From Escherichia phage MIZ6, in the sequence record OR192075.1: DNA of 64,000 bases. One strand, 5' to 3'. The translations under genes were made by a program, and so were the position numbers. Of this stretch, positions 26,281 through 35,580 are shown piece after piece (position 1 is the stretch's first letter; each line of letters starts with the position of its first letter). The notes beneath the pieces were generated by a model. The model was not told the DNA's origin. It worked only from the letters and a program-made list of their open reading frames with translations, and made no database searches.

Positions 26281-26738
26281 TTTGTGATCTCCTTATACTC
26301 AACACACCATAAGCGGGTAGCCCATGATAAACGCTCATAACGCTGGCAGAAATCGGACCATAGATATTGTGTACCGTCTTGCATGGTTGAAATATGCGTT
26401 TTCTCACCTACTTTCACGAAAGAAGTATTCGATTTTGTGATCTCGACCGGAGTATATCCGAAAGCGGGTTCCAAGTCAACATCTGAACTAAATGCCAATT
26501 TAACAGAATTTGTTTTTCTGACCGCTGTCCGGTTTCCTTCTGGGTACAACACAGCAGGTTTAGCGCCTAAGCGGATAAACTCAGTATTTTTAATGAACAG
26601 AATATCATGATAACCGTCATATTCCGACACTTCCATAGTAACAGGAAAATTGATATGTGCTAAACCTGGTAGATCTCGCATATCATGAAATGTAGCCATA
26701 ATCTTTTTCATTCTATATTCCTCACTCTTCTGTTTCAT
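26277..26738 (-). CDS. hypothetical protein
   Basis: 153 aa minus-strand ORF. Confidence 0.4.
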   Translation of the reverse strand: MKQKSEEYRMKKIMATFHDMRDLPGLAHINFPVTMEVSEYDGYHDILFIKNTEFIRLGAKPAVLYPEGNRTAVRKTNSVKLAFSSDVDLEPAFGYTPVEITKSNTSFVKVGEKTHISTMQDGTQYLWSDFCQRYERLSWATRLWCVEYKEITK

Positions 26739-26919
26739 TTCTTTTATATGGTACTATAACAGGATTAATACAGCAAGCACCAATTACGTTATGAGCACCA
26801 CAATTTAAACATTTATAGTCATGGAACTTATTAAGGAATCGACCAAACTCATAACCGACTAGCGCCGCATGTACTTGAGTCTCGATCTCATCCATATCAG
26901 CCAATGTTTTAACCTTCAT
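26722..26919 (-). CDS. small Cys-containing protein (CLNCGAHNVIGACC)
   Basis: 65 aa minus-strand ORF. Confidence 0.3.
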   Translation of the reverse strand: MKVKTLADMDEIETQVHAALVGYEFGRFLNKFHDYKCLNCGAHNVIGACCINPVIVPYKRNETEE

Positions 26920-26929
26920 AATATAATCC

Positions 26930-27220
26930 TCAAATTGTAGTTTTGCGAAGATGGTTATTACATGCTTTTAATGCATCATTCGCGGTGTCATAGCGAGTAT
27001 TATCATAGCACCAATAACCATCTGTCAACCGATAAATTAATCCATCCTTTTTAGCTTCTATGAAAGATAACTCTTTGAAAGTTTCTACTTTCTTTGCTGA
27101 TACTCCACGGTCACGGCGTTTATAGAGTTTAGCTAAAATGCGTTCAGCTTGTTCCTCTTTATCACCTGACAGATCCCAGATGATGTTTCGGATATGCTTG
27201 ATTAATTGTTCAGTGGTCAT
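26930..27220 (-). CDS. hypothetical protein
   Basis: 96 aa; own promoter at 27249-27276 and RBS GGAGAATCAAAG. Confidence 0.4.
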   Translation of the reverse strand: MTTEQLIKHIRNIIWDLSGDKEEQAERILAKLYKRRDRGVSAKKVETFKELSFIEAKKDGLIYRLTDGYWCYDNTRYDTANDALKACNNHLRKTTI

Positions 27221-27248
27221 CTTTGATTCTCCTTAGTTGGTATGCGTG

Positions 27249-27276
27249 CATTATAGCATTGTGATTATCTTTGTCA
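27249..27276 (-). promoter_or_regulatory. early-type sigma70 promoter
   Basis: Minus-strand TTGACA, 16 bp, TATAAT; preceded by a terminator. Confidence 0.55.
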
Positions 27277-27281
27277 ACACC

Positions 27282-27314
27282 CAAAAACAAAAAAGGCTAC
27301 CCCGAAGGATAGCC
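27282..27314 (-). terminator. rho-independent terminator after the glycine-rich protein gene
   Basis: Minus-strand hairpin GGGCTATCCttcgGGGTAGCC followed by TTTTTTGTTTTT. Confidence 0.6.
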
Positions 27315-27321
27315 CATAAAA

Positions 27322-28107
27322 TTACACGCGAGCACCGTAGATCGTGCCTACTTTATCCCAGCGAGGGGCATTACCAGTAACAGCTTTACCCGCAGCACCA
27401 CCAGAGTGAACAGTTCCTCCAGTACCACCTTTAATATATGAAGATTTGCCAGCAGCTCCCAAATCTCCACCATCTCCTCCATAATGAACCCCAGAAACAG
27501 TGCCTTTACCTGGGGCAGAAATTGTACCAGCAGATGCTGCCGCTGCGCCGCCTCCTGCCGCACCCGCAGCACCAAATGGACGGCCTCCACCGCCGCCAAA
27601 TTTCATATCCATTTGAGGGAAAGGATTGTATCTAGCACCAGCACCGCCACCACCGCCACCACCAATAATACCATTATTGTTTATTCTTAAACGAGTTCCA
27701 ATTCCGTTATTTATTGCATTTCCTCCTGCTCCACCAGCAGAGTTACTTCCGCCATTTCCTCCACGACCTAATACATGAACACCAGAGTTAATAATGAGTG
27801 TTACATATTCGTTTGTCAGTGAGCTAGGGAAATCAAGACAAGGAACGCCAGTAGATTGGGAAACAATATTACCCGTGATAGTAATTACTACCGGAGTAGA
27901 TCCTTGTGCTTTCATCCAGTTAATAAGAGTGTCTTTATTGTAAGAGTTACTAGCACCAATGCTATAATGAATCTCTTTAGAGCGTCCGACCATTGCCGAC
28001 ATATACGCCGGACGACCTAAGCGAACAGCTTGCATTGCGGCGCTCATCCACCGTTGACCAGTCTCGGACACAGCAGATGATCCTACCCATCCAGAAGATA
28101 TTGCCAT
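27322..28107 (-). CDS. glycine-rich protein (about 110-aa N-terminal globular part, then about 150 aa of Gly/Ala/Asn-rich low-complexity sequence)
   Basis: 261 aa; runs of GGNGGSNSAGGAGGN, GGGGGGGAGA, FGGGGGRPFGAAGAAGGGAAAA; not a collagen G-X-Y pattern; RBS GAGGAAATTTT; followed by a terminator. Confidence 0.5.
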   Translation of the reverse strand: MAISSGWVGSSAVSETGQRWMSAAMQAVRLGRPAYMSAMVGRSKEIHYSIGASNSYNKDTLINWMKAQGSTPVVITITGNIVSQSTGVPCLDFPSSLTNEYVTLIINSGVHVLGRGGNGGSNSAGGAGGNAINNGIGTRLRINNNGIIGGGGGGGAGARYNPFPQMDMKFGGGGGRPFGAAGAAGGGAAAASAGTISAPGKGTVSGVHYGGDGGDLGAAGKSSYIKGGTGGTVHSGGAAGKAVTGNAPRWDKVGTIYGARV

Positions 28108-28120
28108 AAAATTTCCTCAC

Positions 28121-28143
28121 AAGAAAAGCCCCAATTAAGGGGC
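28121..28143 (-). terminator. terminator-like hairpin (possible attenuator) just upstream of the glycine-rich protein gene
   Basis: Minus-strand GCCCCttaattGGGGC followed by TTTTCTT; lies between two genes with no promoter after it. Confidence 0.35.
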
Positions 28144-28161
28144 ATTGATTGATAATATTAC

Positions 28162-28383
28162 TTAGATGACCTCTGCTTCACCATTCAGGAAGAAAGACCA
28201 TGTTTTGTTAGGATAGCGAAGCGCCCATGATTCAGCGGTTTTAACACCAGATTCGAACAATTGACGGCTGGTTACTTTAGCCATACCATCTTCGATGGCA
28301 ACGTTTTCAATAATCATCGGGTACTTAGCGCCACGCATGAAACCGAAGCCAGCGGAAGATTTGATAATTTTAACCGTTGCCAT
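28162..28383 (-). CDS. hypothetical protein
   Basis: 73 aa; promoter at 28425-28453 and RBS GGAGAATCAAAA. Confidence 0.4.
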   Translation of the reverse strand: MATVKIIKSSAGFGFMRGAKYPMIIENVAIEDGMAKVTSRQLFESGVKTAESWALRYPNKTWSFFLNGEAEVI

Positions 28384-28424
28384 TTTTGATTCTCCTAGAA
28401 AGTGTATCTCGTTTCGATGTGTGT

Positions 28425-28453
28425 ATTATGCAATAACACCGGAACGCTGTCAA
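28425..28453 (-). promoter_or_regulatory. early-type sigma70 promoter
   Basis: Minus-strand TTGACA, 17 bp, CATAAT, then ACACACATCGAAACGAG leader. Confidence 0.5.
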
Positions 28454-28471
28454 CACTTTCTAAGAAAAATT

Positions 28472-28756
28472 TTAAACTAATCGAATGTAGCCCAAAATTT
28501 CAGCATTTTTAGCCAGATCTAAAATTTCCCATTCAAGATCGCCGTAGTCATAATTTGCAACCATCAACTGACCATTTTTCATGCAGCAATCATGAGAGAA
28601 AATTTGCCCCGCATAAACTACGATAGTAATAAACTTTCCTGATTCTGGCGGTGTGGAAGACAAAGCGACCATATGACCATTCAGCTTAGTCACCAGTGAT
28701 GGAACAATAAAATTCGGGCTTACCTGAATACCGTTAAATTCGTTTGTGTCTTTCAT
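28472..28756 (-). CDS. hypothetical protein
   Basis: 94 aa minus-strand ORF. Confidence 0.35.
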   Translation of the reverse strand: MKDTNEFNGIQVSPNFIVPSLVTKLNGHMVALSSTPPESGKFITIVVYAGQIFSHDCCMKNGQLMVANYDYGDLEWEILDLAKNAEILGYIRLV

Positions 28757-29103
28757 GCCAGACCTCGCAAAACACTAATAGCATAATCATGCTGGTTATT
28801 CATAATATCAATTGCATTGTGATAACGAGCTAAACCATCAAGGATAAATTCTTGTTTATCCTGTTTCAGTTTGGTATCACGCGCAGCCATAAGAGCATCA
28901 AGAACAGGTCCAAAGTGATTATCTAATTCATCTTCGGTTGCAATGTTTCCTATTGCCTCGTCGATCCGTGATTCTAATGCTTGCTTTTCGTTGATCACTT
29001 GCTGGGTATATTCCAACACATCAAGAATATCGCGGGTAACGTCGCCATGATAAGGTATCCCCGCATGAAGATGATCGATTAATCGCTGAATATCAATGTT
29101 CAT
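28753..29103 (-). CDS. hypothetical protein
   Basis: 116 aa minus-strand ORF. Confidence 0.35.
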   Translation of the reverse strand: MNIDIQRLIDHLHAGIPYHGDVTRDILDVLEYTQQVINEKQALESRIDEAIGNIATEDELDNHFGPVLDALMAARDTKLKQDKQEFILDGLARYHNAIDIMNNQHDYAISVLRGLA

Positions 29104-29438
29104 TTGTAACCCTCCTCTGAAAGCACATCCCAGATCGTTGCGTCAAGATGCATTAAATTCCACATAATAGAGTCATAACTACCGAAGCCAGAAGTAAAAA
29201 TTACATCACACTGGCGATATGTCTTATGAAAATCGGTGGCTGTCTCTGCATCAATCGGCATATCGTCACCGGAAAGCACCAGACATTTAAGAATCATAAC
29301 TCTGTTAGCCGTTGGCGCTTGCTTAGTCTTTTCAGCATATTTTTCGATGATCCGTTTTGCCTTTTCTTCTTTGATACGTCCAGACCAAATCCGGTTTCGG
29401 TATTGATTCATAATAATTTCAATCACATCATTTTGCAT
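29100..29438 (-). CDS. hypothetical protein
   Basis: 112 aa minus-strand ORF. Confidence 0.35.
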   Translation of the reverse strand: MQNDVIEIIMNQYRNRIWSGRIKEEKAKRIIEKYAEKTKQAPTANRVMILKCLVLSGDDMPIDAETATDFHKTYRQCDVIFTSGFGSYDSIMWNLMHLDATIWDVLSEEGYK

Positions 29439-29637
29439 TCTTCACGGTCTCCATAATTGTTTTGTAAGCCAGTTTAAGATGATCACCGAAAAACTTTGCG
29501 GTGTTACCCTTCGGATCGCGGAGCATGGTTTCTACGATCTCATCGGTAGTAACAATTTCTCCTTTCTTTGCTGCATGTTCTACCATATACTTCAAAGTTT
29601 CTTCGGAAGCAAGTGCTGCCGCTACTGGATTAATCAT
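29428..29637 (-). CDS. hypothetical protein
   Basis: 69 aa; promoter at 29667-29695, RBS GGAGAATCAAAATG. Confidence 0.4.
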   Translation of the reverse strand: MINPVAAALASEETLKYMVEHAAKKGEIVTTDEIVETMLRDPKGNTAKFFGDHLKLAYKTIMETVKNAK

Positions 29638-29700: not shown

Positions 29701-29735
29701 AAAAACGAAAAAGCCACCCTTTCGGATGGCTTTTT
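29701..29735 (-). terminator. rho-independent terminator (possibly bidirectional)
   Basis: Hairpin GCCACCCtttcGGATGGC flanked by an A-run on one side and a T-run on the other. Confidence 0.55.
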
Positions 29736-30721: not shown

Positions 30722-31318
30722 TTATTTGGTAGTACCGTCAATAAAATGTTTACGGCACACAGAGACATATTTATCCTCTGCACCAACTTCTATTTGAGCA
30801 CCATCGCGAATAACATTACCCTCTTTATCTACACGAAGGACCATTGTTGCTTTCTTGCCACAATGACAAATACCCTTCATTTCGACCAGTTTATCAGCAA
30901 ATGCCATTAATGCCGCAGATCCTTCAAATAGATTGCCCTGAAAGTCGGTGCGAAGGCCATAGCACAGTACAGGGATATTTGCATCATCGACAAGCGCACA
31001 CAAGCCTAAAACATGCTCTTTAGTCATAAATTGGGCTTCATCTACAAATACAGCATCAGGACGCCATCGATCCGGTCTACGCTTACCTAACGATTCACGA
31101 TAAACCAAATCGAAAAGATCATCCGATTCAGTGAAGGTGATCGCTGGAGCACTTAGGCCAATTCGGGAAACAACTTCACTTTCTGAATCTCGATTATCAA
31201 TCGCTGGCTTAAGAATTAATACTCGCATATCACGTTCGGTATAGTTATAAGCACTTTGTAACAGAGAAGTTGATTTGCCAGCGTTCATAGATGCATAGTA
31301 GAAATATAGTTGCGCCAT
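30722..31318 (-). CDS. tk: thymidine kinase
   Basis: 198 aa; P-loop MNAGKST, VFVDEAQF, C-terminal Zn motif CHCGKKA...CRKH typical of type II thymidine kinases. Confidence 0.9.
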   Translation of the reverse strand: MAQLYFYYASMNAGKSTSLLQSAYNYTERDMRVLILKPAIDNRDSESEVVSRIGLSAPAITFTESDDLFDLVYRESLGKRRPDRWRPDAVFVDEAQFMTKEHVLGLCALVDDANIPVLCYGLRTDFQGNLFEGSAALMAFADKLVEMKGICHCGKKATMVLRVDKEGNVIRDGAQIEVGAEDKYVSVCRKHFIDGTTK

Positions 31319-31611
31319 TAATTAATCTCCAAAAATCCAGCAAGACCTAAACCGATATAAGTCCAGATACAAAGGAAAAAGAAGCAAACACCCATAGCAA
31401 AGATAAATCCGCGTAGTGTCTTTGGATAACCTACCCAATATTCCCGACCATCTTCTAACCGGATCAGCTTATTTCCTTGAGAGTCCATATCAATTACAAC
31501 ATGTTTATTTCTGGATTGTAACAGATATTGCTTGACAATCTCAATACCCGCCATAATAACAATAACGAAATTGAAAGTCCACATAACAAGGTTAATGGTA
31601 GTCTCAAGCAT
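31318..31611 (-). CDS. predicted membrane protein
   Basis: 97 aa with two hydrophobic segments; overlaps the tk start. Confidence 0.4.
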   Translation of the reverse strand: MLETTINLVMWTFNFVIVIMAGIEIVKQYLLQSRNKHVVIDMDSQGNKLIRLEDGREYWVGYPKTLRGFIFAMGVCFFFLCIWTYIGLGLAGFLEIN

Positions 31612-31846
31612 TTTCTATAACCTCCACCCAATCAGGTGTTTCCTGAAAGACTCCTTCGCCTTCATGATGGTCGCAACCTTTATTGCTGCAATACATCCAC
31701 CAATCCCACATTCCCCACGGTAAACGCTGCATATCGTCGTTACAGCAAGTGAAGATGATAGGCCAACCACATCTAACACATCGGCAGTTTTCTTTCATGT
31801 GAGCGGTATTAGGCTTCTTCATAGATGACTCCAATATAATCGACAT
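31604..31846 (-). CDS. Cys-rich small protein (putative zinc-binding)
   Basis: 80 aa; CRCVRCGW...CCNDD...CSNKGCDHHEGEG. Confidence 0.4.
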   Translation of the reverse strand: MSIILESSMKKPNTAHMKENCRCVRCGWPIIFTCCNDDMQRLPWGMWDWWMYCSNKGCDHHEGEGVFQETPDWVEVIENA

Positions 31847-32049
31847 TTACATTTAGGGCAATGCGGTTCTTTAATATAATACCCGTCTGTCTTTGGAACA
31901 CTAACAGGAGCGGTTTTTATATTGTATTCGGTGAAACAACGAAAACAAGTTACGTTTTCTACAGACTGACGTTTCACCCAATCACCGGAATATAGATCAT
32001 TTTTATTTGTCATATTCAACCACCACAATGTTAATGTCTGGAGTAGCAA
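31819..32049 (-). CDS. Cys-rich small protein (zinc-ribbon-like)
   Basis: 76 aa; CFRCF...CPKCKC. Confidence 0.35.
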   Translation of the reverse strand: MLLQTLTLWWLNMTNKNDLYSGDWVKRQSVENVTCFRCFTEYNIKTAPVSVPKTDGYYIKEPHCPKCKCRLYWSHL

Positions 32050-32458
32050 TATTAATGATCTCTTCTACACATTCCCACTCAAGGCCACCGATACCGCAAC
32101 CGATTTTAGGAATATAGAAAGGCTGTGTAGCACCTTCAAAAACATCATTGAGAGTCTCAAATCCTTTCAGGATAGCACCATATTCAGCATTTGGACCCGG
32201 TCGGAATTGGGTATAGAGATTCACCCCGCACCAGTTATAACCATTAACTTGATGCGTCCAGACACTAAACCCACCCAGCTTTTCGACCTTACCGCGAGAA
32301 GTTTGCTTGTCAATCTCTAACGCTTGCGGGAACTCTTTCGCGATCTTTGCAGCAATACCAGCGCCCATAGTATGAAAACAATTACAACCATGAATTAAAT
32401 GACCGTTTCCTTGTTTAAACAGGGCGATGAGATCGCCCTTTACAGTATCAATAATCAT
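32003..32458 (-). CDS. macro domain protein, TARG1/OARD1/DarG-like (putative ADP-ribose hydrolase)
   Basis: 151 aa; GDLIALFKQGNGHLIHGCNCFHTMGAGIAAKIAKEFP and PKIGCGIGGLEWECV match the diagnostic motifs of the TARG1/OARD1 macro subfamily as recalled. Confidence 0.7.
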   Translation of the reverse strand: MIIDTVKGDLIALFKQGNGHLIHGCNCFHTMGAGIAAKIAKEFPQALEIDKQTSRGKVEKLGGFSVWTHQVNGYNWCGVNLYTQFRPGPNAEYGAILKGFETLNDVFEGATQPFYIPKIGCGIGGLEWECVEEIINIATPDINIVVVEYDK

Positions 32459-32473
32459 AATATAAACCTCTCA

Positions 32474-32833
32474 TTAGTCACGGGAAGACAACCCAGCCAT
32501 AAAACGGCTTAACAGTGTGTCGCGATAAGCAAAGCATAATTGCTTATCAGGAGCAGTATCACACAAGTTGCGTTTTGTTTTAGCAAAGCTGGCAATACTC
32601 AGATCCCATGCTCGATTTTTTCGTTTTTCGTCTCGACCTTGTTTGTATGCTTCATCAAGTTCGAGCGCGATAAAATCACTACACATGTTATCATCATCAC
32701 AGAAAGTTTTAATGATCTTTTTGTTGATCTCAAATCCTTTGTATTCAAACTTTGGATAAGGGCGCTCATTACTAGCAAGCGCACCAGCCGAGAACATCAT
32801 AGCAATCATAGCAATTATTGTCAACTTTTTCAT
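32474..32833 (-). CDS. secreted/periplasmic small protein
   Basis: 119 aa with N-terminal signal peptide MKKLTIIAMIAMMFSAGALA and several cysteines. Confidence 0.45.
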   Translation of the reverse strand: MKKLTIIAMIAMMFSAGALASNERPYPKFEYKGFEINKKIIKTFCDDDNMCSDFIALELDEAYKQGRDEKRKNRAWDLSIASFAKTKRNLCDTAPDKQLCFAYRDTLLSRFMAGLSSRD

Positions 32834-32840
32834 ATATTCC

Positions 32841-33431
32841 TCAATAGCGTTTAGTCTTAAGAATGCCTTTACTCTTTAGATGGTTAGCCTTTTTTAGTAC
32901 GTCATCAGCATAACCCAACCCGGCTTTATAGTTCCATCCAGCATTGTAAGAAGCTAGCGCGAGTCGGATATTACCGTTTCGAATATCCAGCCAGTATGCT
33001 AACTCATCCATCGCGTAGAATGCAGAAACCTCGCGATTCATGATAAAGTTGATAGTCTGGCGATCACTCATTTTAACACCGCGCTTTGCATTTTTCGCTT
33101 TCACCGTTTTAAGGTAATTTTGAAATAATCCATAAGCATGATGATTTTTCTTTGGTGCTAAGTTTGCACCCGCGCTTGATTCTTGCCATGCGATACCCGC
33201 CAGGATGTGACCTAAACCCTTTCCGTTATAGCGAATATTCGGATGGTACTTTTTCAACTTACCACTTTTCTCAAATTGCTCGCCGTATTGATAGGCGAAA
33301 TGTAAATTATCTAGTTGGTGTGCTGTAAAGTTGTCTATCGGCGCTTTTTTGATCGGTGCGCTAGTCGATGCGTGTGTAGCACCAACGGCTAGTGACAGAC
33401 TCAATACTATCGCTTTTAGAACTTTTAACAT
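32841..33431 (-). CDS. lytic transglycosylase (Slt-domain), secreted
   Basis: 196 aa; signal peptide; AWQESSAG ... GLFQ ... ASYNAGW catalytic-domain motifs of family 1 lytic transglycosylases. Confidence 0.7.
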   Translation of the reverse strand: MLKVLKAIVLSLSLAVGATHASTSAPIKKAPIDNFTAHQLDNLHFAYQYGEQFEKSGKLKKYHPNIRYNGKGLGHILAGIAWQESSAGANLAPKKNHHAYGLFQNYLKTVKAKNAKRGVKMSDRQTINFIMNREVSAFYAMDELAYWLDIRNGNIRLALASYNAGWNYKAGLGYADDVLKKANHLKSKGILKTKRY

Positions 33432-33517: not shown

Positions 33518-33940
33518 TTATTGGTCTACCTTCAAAACAACCGCCGACATTTTACCCGCCAGTCGTTTTGGATTCTCTATAATCATTCGGCAGCATAGAC
33601 CGTGATACGGCTTACCCTCTTCTATTAGATCTACTGTCATCCCGATCCACATGTTACCGTCAGTAATTTCTAATCGATTAGGTCGGTCTTCCATTTTCAG
33701 GAAGTCGAAGATCTCCGGCAAACGAGTTTCTATCTTATTGAATAGTTCCATTGTCTTATGTTCATCGATATGACGATCGGTTAGACGGTCGATCATATGC
33801 GGACTAAAGCGAATGAAAATATACTCACCATAACCATCATTCAAGCACTTTTCTTTGATCTGCGCATTGGTTTTGCGCATTTCGGTTTCGAAGAATCTAC
33901 GCAGCTTACTACGGCGAACATGTACGTTAATTGTTTCCAT
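33518..33940 (-). CDS. regB: RegB site-specific endoribonuclease
   Basis: METINVHVRRSKLRRFFETE...PNRLEITDGNMWIGMTV...CCRMIIENPKRLAGKMSAVVLK parallels T4 RegB as recalled; start set at METINV. Confidence 0.85.
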   Translation of the reverse strand: METINVHVRRSKLRRFFETEMRKTNAQIKEKCLNDGYGEYIFIRFSPHMIDRLTDRHIDEHKTMELFNKIETRLPEIFDFLKMEDRPNRLEITDGNMWIGMTVDLIEEGKPYHGLCCRMIIENPKRLAGKMSAVVLKVDQ

Positions 33941-33944
33941 TTTA

Positions 33945-34280
33945 TTATCCTTTCTTAAACAAATTGCGAAGCCAGTATACAAACGGGATTTCTTTAAACT
34001 TGAATTTCTCTATAGTTAATTCTTTAGTAGCAAGATGAATACCATAAGCATCATGTGTCACGATATGCCATTTTCTATAGTCCAAATGTGAACAACCGTC
34101 TGGATCTAGGTTAATAAGAGTTTCTCGCTCACTAGGATTATTTTTCCACAATTTTGTAATAGGATCGCACATAATTCGACCTAGCGTACCATGAATAATC
34201 TCACAACGGTAAAGTTTTCCAGCAGTGAGATAGGCGCACCCGTCATAGTCGGTATAAACAAACACTTCTTTAACACTCAT
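33945..34280 (-). CDS. hypothetical protein
   Basis: Start set at MSVKEVFVY after AGGAGTATTAAA; promoter at 34309-34337. Confidence 0.4.
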   Translation of the reverse strand: MSVKEVFVYTDYDGCAYLTAGKLYRCEIIHGTLGRIMCDPITKLWKNNPSERETLINLDPDGCSHLDYRKWHIVTHDAYGIHLATKELTIEKFKFKEIPFVYWLRNLFKKG

Positions 34281-34308
34281 TTTAATACTCCTTTGTTTCG
34301 ATGGGGGT

Positions 34309-34337
34309 ATATTACTACCCCCGTTTTGTTGTGTCAA
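34309..34337 (-). promoter_or_regulatory. early-type sigma70 promoter with hairpin around the -10
   Basis: Minus-strand TTGACA, 17 bp, TAATAT inside GGGGGTAGTAATATACCCCC; leader CATCGAAAC. Confidence 0.5.
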
Positions 34338-34598
34338 CTACTTTTTCAAGATTTTTTTAATTGCGTTCCAAAGACCTTTATTCTCAGGTTGTTTTGGTTC
34401 TTCGATCAGTGTCCATGTTCGACCGTCTAAGTGTGCACAATTTTTAAGACAAATAAAAATCTGATGTCCCTTATCATCACGGATATAACCACTATTCGCA
34501 AATCTTTCATGTGGTGTATATTCATACAGTGTATTTGGTGTAATATACTTGCGGTTACTATAAGGTGTCATCACATACATCATGGTACTAACTCCCAT
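34338..34598 (-). CDS. hypothetical protein (tandem paralogue A)
   Basis: 86 aa; shares YxxTPxxxY...GYIxDDxG...CAHL with the next ORF. Confidence 0.4.
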   Translation of the reverse strand: MGVSTMMYVMTPYSNRKYITPNTLYEYTPHERFANSGYIRDDKGHQIFICLKNCAHLDGRTWTLIEEPKQPENKGLWNAIKKILKK

Positions 34599-34774
34599 TT
34601 ATCACCGCGAAGATGAGCACATCCACCATCAAGAAGGATCGTAATACGAACACCCGCATCATCTTCAATATACCCGATAGTCGGTGGATGTTCGTCGTCT
34701 CGTGCCGGGGTAAAATCATACATCTTTCCAGGCGTAATATCTTGTCCTTTATTGCTATTGGTATAAACTTGCAT
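34580..34774 (-). CDS. hypothetical protein (tandem paralogue B)
   Basis: 64 aa; ITPGKMYDFTP...IGYIEDDAGVRI...GGCAHLRGDKWEL mirrors the downstream paralogue. Confidence 0.4.
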   Translation of the reverse strand: MQVYTNSNKGQDITPGKMYDFTPARDDEHPPTIGYIEDDAGVRITILLDGGCAHLRGDKWELVP

Positions 34775-34795: not shown

Positions 34796-35494
34796 CTAAC
34801 CACGGGTATAGTGTTCCAGAACAACTGTCAGATGAATATATTCTAATAGATCTTTCCAAAAGTCAACATCTGGTTCTTCCGGCATACCGTTTTTCTTTGC
34901 CTCTTCACGCGCGAGTTTAACACGCTCGTAGAGATCTTTCAATTCTTCCCGCACATTATCAAAGGTTCTTTCTCCTAACTTACACGCTAAAATAGAAGAA
35001 CGTCGCGCGAGCGGGAATTGTAGATCACCAGTTTGATAGATTTCAAGTAGCTGATAACCAACACGCAGAGCATGAGAAAGATCTTTCCAGTTACTGAAAT
35101 ACTTTTCAGATTTTGCTACCTGCTTTTTGAGATAACCAGACAAACCCCACATCCCAACATGATAGAATTTATCGCGATGTGTTCGGATGTATTCCCATTC
35201 TCTGGAGGATTCAATCAACATGTTACTAGGAGCGTGCACCATGTCAATAGCGCCGATATCGCCTTTACATGCCAGATTGATAAACCGTTTTAGACTGAAC
35301 ATATTAACGTCAATGTCGTCTTTGGTGTTCTTGATCCCTTGACCGCTAGTGCTTTGATCATAGTGTTCTTTCATCGATCCTAAGATAATTTCTTTCGCAG
35401 TCGGAACAAAGATACCACGATAATCTTTATCGGAGTTTTCAGTATCAAGGCCGTATAAGTGAGATCCGAAGACCATTTTAACCATTGTATGCAT
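34796..35494 (-). CDS. nucleotidyltransferase (Pol-beta superfamily, MNT-like)
   Basis: 232 aa; N-terminal VFGSHLYGLDTENSDKDYRGIF fits the GS...D.D signature of Pol-beta-type NTases; remainder helical. Confidence 0.55.
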   Translation of the reverse strand: MHTMVKMVFGSHLYGLDTENSDKDYRGIFVPTAKEIILGSMKEHYDQSTSGQGIKNTKDDIDVNMFSLKRFINLACKGDIGAIDMVHAPSNMLIESSREWEYIRTHRDKFYHVGMWGLSGYLKKQVAKSEKYFSNWKDLSHALRVGYQLLEIYQTGDLQFPLARRSSILACKLGERTFDNVREELKDLYERVKLAREEAKKNGMPEEPDVDFWKDLLEYIHLTVVLEHYTRG

Positions 35495-35538: not shown

Positions 35539-35570
35539 AAAAGAAAAAGCCAACCCTTTTCGGATTGGCT
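35539..35570 (-). terminator. rho-independent terminator after grcA
   Basis: Minus-strand hairpin AGCCAATCCgaaaaGGGTTGGCT followed by TTTTTCTTTTT. Confidence 0.55.
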
Positions 35571-35580
35571 TGATGAAAAA

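Follow-up and report, generated by a model that had tools for sequence, protein, structure and literature searches.

The minus strand of the window, a 64,000-nucleotide stretch of DNA from Escherichia phage MIZ6 (sequence record OR192075.1), encodes between the genes vs and tk a macrodomain protein of 151 amino acids (aa), and we describe here this gene and its probable role in neutralizing the bacterial defense DarTG2. The window matches the Escherichia phages MIZ2 and MIZ3 at 100% identity and RB49 (Krischvirus, Straboviridae), where the annotation names the gene tk.4, at 98.9%. It corresponds to positions 96002-160001 of MIZ2 (OR167178.1), and the whole MIZ2 genome of 163.7 kb was used for genome-wide searches. 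The gene and its ribosome-binding site are located as follows.

32003..32458, minus strand: tk.4/adfM-like gene, encoding a 151-aa stand-alone Gln-type macrodomain whose post-Gln loop is short
32467..32472, minus strand: Shine-Dalgarno sequence GAGAGG, 8 nt before the tk.4 ATG, by direct reading of the sequence

The open reading frame (ORF) listing and the sequence agree on an ATG start and 151 aa followed by a stop. An initial annotation made from the letters alone had proposed a TARG1/DarG-like macrodomain hydrolase at this position, and the ORF and the motifs it named (GDL..., HGCNCFHTMGAGIAAKIAKEFP, and PKIGCGIGGLEWECV) are all present in the minus-strand translation. The gap between the stop codon of vs and the tk.4 ATG is 15 nt and holds the GAGAGG sequence. 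The protein matches the Pfam Macro family (PF01661) with 27.5 bits and an E-value of 3e-6, above the gathering score of 22, and its whole length is covered by a match to PHROG 335 (E 5.8e-63); the macro match is far beyond chance. Homologs were found by tblastn in 2,734 of 50,697 phage records.

The predicted structure places the protein more precisely among macrodomains. An AlphaFold2 model, built from an input alignment of 57 sequences with the T4 row left out, has a predicted local distance difference test score (pLDDT) of 97.2, a predicted template modeling score (pTM) of 0.91, and the secondary-structure order of a three-layer alpha/beta fold. In a Foldseek search of the PDB, its top matches are to TARG1 (E 2e-10, template modeling (TM) scores of 0.76-0.82, 28-30% identity), and TARG1, Poa1p, and DarG together occupy ranks 1-18 of more than 200 macrodomain matches at E<=1e-3; the other high matches are Poa1p, the T. 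aquaticus and M. tuberculosis DarG macrodomains (TM up to 0.80), Thermosipho DarTG, BT1257, and SCO6735. Searching the PDB with the single sequence returns M. tuberculosis DarG first (2.5e-7) and TARG1 at 5e-6, and searching with the family profile returns BT1257 (3e-15), TARG1 (4e-14), SCO6735 (1e-13), and DarG (2.5e-13). Profile E-values for the TARG1, DarG, SCO6735, and Poa1p-type neighbors thus run from 1e-11 to 1e-15, versus ≈6e-3 for coronavirus Mac1. The protein belongs among the ALC1/TARG1-like macrodomains, its neighbors being TARG1, DarG, SCO6735, and Poa1p and not MacroD, PARG, or viral Mac1. The class called in the initial annotation is therefore supported both by the sequence searches and by the structural comparison with TARG1 and DarG macrodomains.

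The gene also sits where a T4 relative would be expected. In order of transcription, the minus-strand unit reads regB, vs.1, vs, tk.4, two small zinc-ribbon ORFs that we call Zn1 and Zn2, a 97-aa membrane protein, and tk, and its ORFs are densely packed, with stops overlapping starts.

33518..33982, minus strand: regB endoribonuclease (Pfam REGB_T4, E 2e-48)
32841..33431, minus strand: vs.1, SLT-domain protein (Pfam SLT; 52.5% identity to T4 Vs.1)
32474..32833, minus strand: vs, valyl-tRNA synthetase modifier, the upstream synteny anchor (phrog_1256, E 2e-33; RB49/MIZ2 annotation)
31819..32013, minus strand: Zn1, 64-aa zinc-ribbon mini-protein directly downstream of tk.4 (Pfam PF23903, E 1.8e-23)
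31604..31822, minus strand: Zn2, 72-aa Cys/Trp-rich zinc-binding mini-protein (Pfam PF23895, E 5.6e-34)
31318..31611, minus strand: 97-aa predicted membrane protein between Zn2 and tk (phrog_16027)
30722..31318, minus strand: tk, thymidine kinase, the downstream synteny anchor (Pfam TK, E 1e-51)

The order regB-vs.1-vs-tk.4-...-tk is the same in the window and in T4, where tk.4 lies between vs and tk, and 22 T4-like contigs carry tk.4 in the same context. The 151-aa protein is 43% identical to T4 Tk.4 over 153 aa (E 2e-44), T4 Tk.4 likewise reads NLYTQF, and a neighbor-joining tree, which carries no support values, places the protein with T4 AdfM in a T4-like clade of proteins from the tk context. 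The protein shows both the full-length homology and the position between vs and tk that mark the T4 Tk.4/AdfM orthologous group and, on homology and gene order, the gene is the Krischvirus syntenic ortholog of T4 tk.4 (adfM).

This orthology matters because of what has been reported for T4. Growth of a library of T4 transposon mutants on a host carrying DarTG2 gave tk.4 as the single significant hit (HIDEN-SEQ preprint, November 2025, 10.1101/2025.11.20.689424). A clean tk.4 knockout made T4 sensitive to DarTG2, and the gene was renamed adfM, for anti-DarT factor Macrodomain (10.1101/2025.11.20.689424). The data are genetic only, and enzymatic removal of ADP-ribose is an inference by the authors, in whose words it "seems likely" (10.1101/2025.11.20.689424). 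Beyond this preprint, a literature search for tk.4 returned genome-comparison papers only. The suggestion in the initial annotation that a phage-borne macrodomain might counter DarTG therefore finds genetic backing in the T4 ortholog, which has been shown to protect against DarTG2. The window protein is a further, putative member of this already known type, the anti-DarTG2 role of its T4 ortholog having been published first.

The two proteins share a stand-alone macrodomain of ≈150 aa, the vs-tk position, the N-x-Y-T-Q motif, and a short QF-x-PGPN loop, and both genomes also encode AdfN. They differ in that T4 is a Tequatrovirus and the window belongs to Krischvirus, and in that the interval between tk.4 and tk holds tk.3, tk.2, and tk.1 in T4 but unrelated zinc-ribbon ORFs in the window. 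The AdfN homolog lies beside the DNA ligase gene at MIZ2 40237-40716 and is 38% identical (E 2e-24) to T4 30.3/AdfN, a NADAR protein that acts against DarTG1. No homolog of AdfA (T4 61.2) was found at E<=0.01 in the MIZ2 genome. From these gene contents, the phage, like T4, appears to be equipped against both DarT1 and DarT2.

Although the fold points to TARG1 and DarG, the catalytic residues of those enzymes, which the initial annotation had expected, are absent. The Lys84-Asp125 dyad of TARG1 is replaced by Gln84 and Gly124, and the Lys80 of DarG by the same Gln84. The residues at issue are encoded as follows.

32381..32383, minus strand: codon of Asn26, the invariant macrodomain Asn, equivalent to SCO6735 N27, DarG N22, and PhiKZ AdfM N23
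32309-32311, minus strand: codon of Asp50, a family-invariant residue
32213-32215, minus strand: codon of Tyr82, a family-invariant residue
32207..32209, minus strand: codon CAA of Gln84, aligned with TARG1 K84, DarG K80, and SCO6735 Q85, within the motif N80-x-Y82-T83-Q84

Gln84 stands opposite the catalytic Lys in four alignments (pairwise phmmer, profile hmmsearch, MAFFT, and hhalign against PhiKZ gp104), and Gly124 stands opposite TARG1 D125 in the three that include TARG1 (phmmer, hmmsearch, and MAFFT); the DarG sequence PTKK aligns with YTQF of the 151-aa protein. On the basis of the four concordant alignments and of its place at the end of strand 74-84 in the AlphaFold2 model, we take Q84 to be the equivalent of the catalytic Lys. 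Two IMG/VR scans together supplied 128 unique members of the family, and in these non-identical phage proteins position 84 is Gln in all but two (126/128, T4 AdfM among them), whereas N26, N80, and Y82 are invariant (128/128). D50 is likewise invariant in an L-INS-i alignment of 85 members. At the positions of D50 and Y82, conserved in 85 of 85 phage members, TARG1, DarG, SCO6735, and BT1257 show Leu/Tyr and Ile/Pro, and by this alignment the two are invariant residues specific to the phage macro family.

A macrodomain with Gln at the Lys position has been characterized in the Streptomyces coelicolor protein SCO6735 (PDB 5E3B), where Gln85 is held by a locking Asn, N27; the Q85A variant is inactive and N27S nearly so (PMC9411070). 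SCO6735 strips thymidine-linked ADP-ribose (dT-ADPr) from DNA and shields cells from DarT, and a water-mediated mechanism independent of Lys has been proposed for it (PMC9411070). In our alignments Q84 corresponds to Q85 and N26 to N27, and the two proteins share the ALC1 class, the Gln for Lys exchange, the conserved locking Asn, and the H-x-C-N and N-x-x-x-Q motifs. SCO6735 differs in being a cellular protein of ≈23% identity whose loop after the Gln is longer (12-13 residues); the Lys34 with which it positions DNA is Ala33 in the 151-aa protein, and the phage-invariant D50 and Y82 are Tyr and Ile in SCO6735. The initial annotation had treated absence of the Lys and Asp equivalents as decisive against its proposal and, taken literally, it fails on this point. 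That criterion is not valid, however: both substitutions recur in T4 AdfM, and dT-ADPr is hydrolyzed by SCO6735, itself a Gln-type enzyme. The absence of Lys and Asp lowers the case that the protein is a TARG1 or a DarG, not the case that it works like one. By analogy with these relatives, the chemistry is more likely to be of the SCO6735 type than the Lys-based mechanism of TARG1 and DarG, and we infer that the window protein shares its activity, substrate, and mechanism with T4 AdfM and SCO6735.

The reading that we consider probable is that the tk.4 product removes DarT2-attached ADP-ribose from phage single-stranded DNA (ssDNA) by this Gln-type chemistry and so neutralizes DarTG2. Early in infection, the macrodomain would be made from the pre-replicative regB-tk minus-strand unit and would bind the ADP-ribose that DarT2 puts on thymidine, in TNTC motifs, of single-stranded phage DNA. 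Asn26 would hold Gln84, which in turn would position the distal ribose by its ring oxygen, and a bound water would then drive cleavage of the bond between the ribose C1'' and the thymine N. With the ADP-ribose freed, the DNA would again be replicable and DarTG2 neutralized, the phage protein serving as an "orphan antitoxin."

Comparison with the bacterial antitoxin itself bears on whether catalysis is needed at all. The DarG2 macrodomains (T. aquaticus 5M31/5M3E and M. tuberculosis 5M3I) share the fold (TM 0.75-0.80), include the best single-sequence match in the PDB, and presumably act on the same substrate as the 151-aa protein. They differ in having Lys80 in place of Gln84, in continuing into a C-terminal domain that binds DarT, and in being encoded beside darT; the neighbors of tk.4 are vs and the zinc-ribbon ORFs, with no adjacent darT. 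The NCBIfam DarG model gives the protein 48.7 bits versus a cutoff of 250 and covers model positions 2-141 of 338. One could suppose that the protein neutralizes DarT2 chiefly through stoichiometric binding, of the toxin or of its ssDNA substrate, and not through catalysis, since inhibition of DarT in vitro persists in catalytically dead variants of SCO6735, DarG, and TARG1 (PMC9411070). We think this very improbable: the protein has no C-terminal DarT-binding domain, DarG models matching it only over positions ≈2-141 of 329-338, and the near-absolute conservation of the ADP-ribose pocket and of the Gln and Asn among 128 diverse phage proteins points to selection for catalysis.

Two other known macrodomains bear comparison. 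Human TARG1/OARD1 (PDB 4J5R), the best Foldseek match, also cleaves dT-ADPr, but with the Lys84/Asp125 dyad in place of Gln84/Gly124. The chimallivirus PhiKZ protein gp104, also called AdfM, has been shown biochemically to remove DarT2 modifications (PMC13309987). Like the 151-aa protein, it is a stand-alone phage macrodomain of PHROG 335 that counters DarTG2; unlike it, PhiKZ gp104 is of the DarG-like "FPTK" Lys type (N23/K78), and the two are 23% identical (hhalign E 1e-10). The PADLOC DarG model scores PhiKZ gp104 at 133 bits versus 49 for the 151-aa protein, and PhiKZ gp104 is imported into the phage nucleus (PMC13309987). Judged by these sequence differences, the PhiKZ AdfM and Tk.4 lineages look like independent acquisitions.

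The family to which Tk.4 belongs has a second documented function, ADP-ribose (ADPR)-1''-phosphate phosphatase (Adpp), which the initial annotation overlooked and which was excluded here as the primary role by gene context. The macrodomain encoded in NARP1 operons, which serve NAD+ salvage, is such a phosphatase, as established by liquid chromatography-mass spectrometry for the enzyme of Vibrio phage Gary (January 2026 preprint, 10.64898/2026.01.28.702374). Adpp lets NARP1 (Adps and Namat) overcome the RES-type NADase defense aRES (10.64898/2026.01.28.702374). The macro genes of Acinetobacter phage Aci05 and Vibrio phage Pontus overlap Adps/Namat genes, the neighbors being annotated as ribose-phosphate pyrophosphokinase and nicotinamide phosphoribosyltransferase, which are the NARP1 pair Adps and Namat. 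NARP1-embedded macro genes, often with overlapping stops and starts, lie at these loci.

Aci05, L003:904-4474
Pontus, L004:3132-6195
21 more IMG/VR loci, for example L081, L114, L148, and L170

The Pontus macrodomain is 94.9% identical to Gary Adpp and 31-33% identical to the 151-aa protein, with the same core motifs including the Gln. Gary Adpp thus belongs to the same phage macro family and shares the catalytic signature including the Gln; it differs in lying between Adps and Namat, in having a long basic/aromatic loop, and in its identity of 31-33%, and NARP1 is absent in the MIZ2 genome. In the 163.7-kb MIZ2 genome no Adps or Namat was detected by tblastn with two divergent pairs (best E 0.74), and none is annotated.

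Sequence differences parallel this difference in context. In all 23 NARP1-linked macrodomains the loop after the Gln is 11-16 aa long and basic/aromatic, with a mean of 3 basic residues (for example QYHWHAHK and QYKYGRNHKDG), whereas an 8-aa QF-x-PGPN loop is found in 18 of 22 tk-context proteins and in none of the 23 NARP1-linked ones (Fisher p 4e-9, for sequences that are not phylogenetically independent). The window protein has the 8-aa type, as does T4 AdfM, and the loops of TARG1 and DarG are equally short. The mean identity of the 151-aa protein is 44.7% to tk-context proteins and 34.8% to NARP1-linked ones, and in the neighbor-joining tree the latter are scattered outside the T4-like clade. 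The post-Gln loop may thus serve as a sequence signature that tells Adpp-type from Tk.4/AdfM-type proteins, the long (>=11 aa) basic loop being an empirical signature derived in this analysis and not a published criterion. The score of DarG hidden Markov models (HMMs), tried for the same purpose, was rejected since it gave no discrimination (49 versus 45.5 bits).

The 151-aa protein could then be primarily an ADPR-1''-phosphate phosphatase, Adpp-like or, as annotations have it, an "A1pp phosphatase," converting to ADPR the ADPR-1''-phosphate that arises from aRES or from tRNA-splicing-type reactions. PHROG 335 is labeled "phosphatase," the word that annotators also use for tk.4; Gary Adpp is in the same family, the Pontus homolog has the same core motifs, and Poa1p, the yeast ADPR-1''-phosphate phosphatase, is among the top structural matches. 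We nevertheless regard this role as quite unlikely, since Adpp is useful only as a feeder of NARP1, with no other known pay-off, and the MIZ2 genome lacks Adps and Namat; the long basic loop of the 23 NARP1-linked macrodomains is missing here, and the protein groups with T4 AdfM and is closer in mean identity to the tk-context proteins. Adpp/NARP1-AP as the primary role was rejected because the genome has no NARP1 operon and the loop, of 8 aa, is of the other type. By its residues, domain content, and gene context, the protein is not a TARG1, not a DarG, and not an Adpp/NARP1-AP component. PHROG 335 itself pools PhiKZ AdfM (a Lys-type DNA ADP-ribosylglycohydrolase), T4 Tk.4/AdfM (Gln-type), and Adpp (an ADPR-1''-phosphate phosphatase). 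Membership of Gary Adpp in the phage macro family means that the "phosphatase" label is not baseless, but with three activities pooled the label is unreliable for function on the thousands of phage genes that carry it.

Several points weigh against removal of DarT2-attached ADP-ribose as the role of the Krischvirus protein. For T4 AdfM the evidence is genetic, with enzymatic removal only likely in its authors' view, and the window protein is only 43% identical to it; for the Krischvirus protein, the role is a prediction from sequence and modeled structure. The signature H-x-C-N, D50, N-x-Y-T-Q, and G-x-G-x-G-G is common to the proven phosphatase Adpp, and DarG HMMs score AdfM and Adpp types about equally, so that the catalytic residues do not reveal substrate specificity. 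The loop-length signature amounts to a correlation across phylogenetically non-independent sequences, and the presumed Q84-N26 geometry and the placement of D50 and Y82 rest on alignment. SCO6735 and DarG also inhibit DarT via direct binding (PMC9411070), and a non-enzymatic share may contribute.

The shared signature also raises the possibility of a promiscuous ribose-C1'' hydrolase that acts on thymidine-ADP-ribose in DNA, on ADPR-1''-phosphate, and perhaps on O-acetyl-ADPR or ADP-ribosylated RNA, and that would thus counter several NAD-based defenses. The catalytic signatures of the Tk.4 and Adpp types are identical, TARG1 and SCO6735 take both protein and DNA substrates (PMC9411070), and viral macrodomains dephosphorylate ADPR-1P in vitro. 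Against such breadth, the clean split of loop types by genomic context favors specialization, and the T4 screens described report tk.4 as a hit for DarTG2 only (10.1101/2025.11.20.689424). We hold this broader activity to be unlikely.

The MIZ2 genome carries three ADP-ribosyltransferase (ART)-like genes, at 26511-29465 and 87620-88123 (an Alt-like gene, a second ART, and an "RNA polymerase ADP-ribosylase"), and the phage therefore writes and, presumably, also erases ADP-ribosylation. These three genes are what would speak for a macrodomain that reverses or tunes ADP-ribosylation by the Alt-like or Mod-like transferases of the phage on host proteins or RNA, a role that we hardly expect. T4 Alt, ModA, and ModB modify arginine, and the resulting ADP-ribose-arginine linkage is not a known target of TARG1-class macrodomains. 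Many of the phages with the macro family, among them Vequintavirus, Saclayvirus, and Thalassavirus, carry it in quite different gene contexts. In T4, moreover, tk.4 is conditionally needed on DarTG2 (10.1101/2025.11.20.689424).

The two Cys-rich mini-proteins that the initial annotation had noted beside the macro gene are real, both belonging to Pfam families named "Phage zinc binding domain" (PF23903 for Zn1 and PF23895 for Zn2), but they were placed on the wrong side: with transcription running along the minus strand, they lie downstream of the macro gene and not upstream. The likely start of Zn1 is the ATG at 32013, which overlaps the 3' end of tk.4 by 11 nt, and that of Zn2 is the ATG at 31822, in an ATGA stop/start overlap with Zn1. 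Two candidate interpretations of these ORFs were discarded. They are not orthologs of T4 tk.3 and tk.2 (BLASTP E 2.2 and 17), and they are not obligate partners of the macrodomain, a minority of 85 macro-gene loci having Zn1 or Zn2. Among those 85 loci Zn2 is confined to T4-like contexts, and it follows tk.4 in several T4-like contigs. Given this sparse association across the macro family, no functional link is established.

Zn1 has a different distribution. The Krischvirus macrodomain is nearer to those of vequintaviruses (≈68-70% identity; rV5-like, I29 and Bas59) than to T4 AdfM (43%) or to other T4-like Tk.4 proteins (43-53%). In vequintaviruses a macro gene of 70% identity is followed, ≈250 nt further on, by a 78%-identical copy of Zn1, and nothing further of this gene context is shared with Krischvirus. 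The pair, recognized by sequence identity, is found at the following positions.

Window 31819-32458: macro and Zn1 pair
Vequintavirus loci L002:3001-3902 and L011:6001-6902: macro and Zn1 pair

Joint conservation of Zn1 and the macro gene in an otherwise unlike Vequintavirus context suggests a small macro and Zn1 module that would have been exchanged horizontally between Krischvirus and Vequintavirus. More tentatively, and as a reading that we consider rather unlikely, the Tk.4/Adpp family may represent a single Gln-based scaffold that hydrolyzes leaving groups from ribose C1'', with the post-Gln loop mainly setting the substrate: a short Pro-rich loop would select thymine on ssDNA (AdfM), and a long basic loop would select phosphate on free ADPR (Adpp). 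The Krischvirus macrodomain, acquired with Zn1 as a mobile pair of genes also present in vequintaviruses, would then work without the Lys, unlike DarG, and may depend on the zinc-ribbon protein for DNA targeting.

The transcriptional layout of the unit, as consensus matches, comprises the following elements.

35547-35571, minus strand (35571->35547): strong terminator-like hairpin, the upstream boundary of the unit (consensus match only)
32796..32824, minus strand: sigma-70-like promoter match TTGACA-17-TATGAT with an extended -10 TG, 11/12 (consensus match only)
29708..29735, minus strand: strong intrinsic-terminator-like hairpin that closes the unit downstream of tk (consensus match only)

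The promoter match falls within the beginning of the vs coding sequence, ≈340 nt ahead of tk.4, and might give tk.4 and the genes downstream of it an early transcript of their own. Further upstream, three tandem small ORFs at 33945-34774 on the minus strand (130, 86, and 64 aa) are mutually paralogous (43% and 27% identity), with invariant C54, H56, L57, and W62 in a C-[AS]-H-L ... W motif and no Pfam match; they form an uncharacterized small-domain family expanded between regB and an RlaP-like gene. The latter, at 34796-35494 on the minus strand, is a 232-aa ORF matching Pfam RlaP (RNA repair pathway DNA polymerase beta family nucleotidyltransferase) at E 3e-14, roughly at the place of the T4 nrdC.11 "nucleotidyltransferase."

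Current understanding is not overturned by these findings, as the main hypothesis is already in print for the T4 ortholog; what they add is that the Tk.4 lineage is of the Gln type, that PHROG 335 is mixed, and that gene context and loop together separate two types. The "phosphatase" of PHROG and RefSeq covers no fewer than three activities that experiments have told apart (Lys-type AdfM, Gln-type Tk.4/AdfM, and Adpp), and gene context with the post-Gln loop offers a simple means to part the AdfM(Tk.4) type from the Adpp type. Because the Tk.4 lineage lacks the Lys of DarG and TARG1, its chemistry is to be modeled on SCO6735, with Gln84 and Asn26, not a lysine, as the residues for catalytically dead controls. 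If the proposed role is true, the anti-DarTG2 function of T4 tk.4 would extend to RB49-like phages and, by homology, also to a family with members in ≈2,700 sequenced phage genomes, where it is mostly labeled "phosphatase" or "hypothetical."

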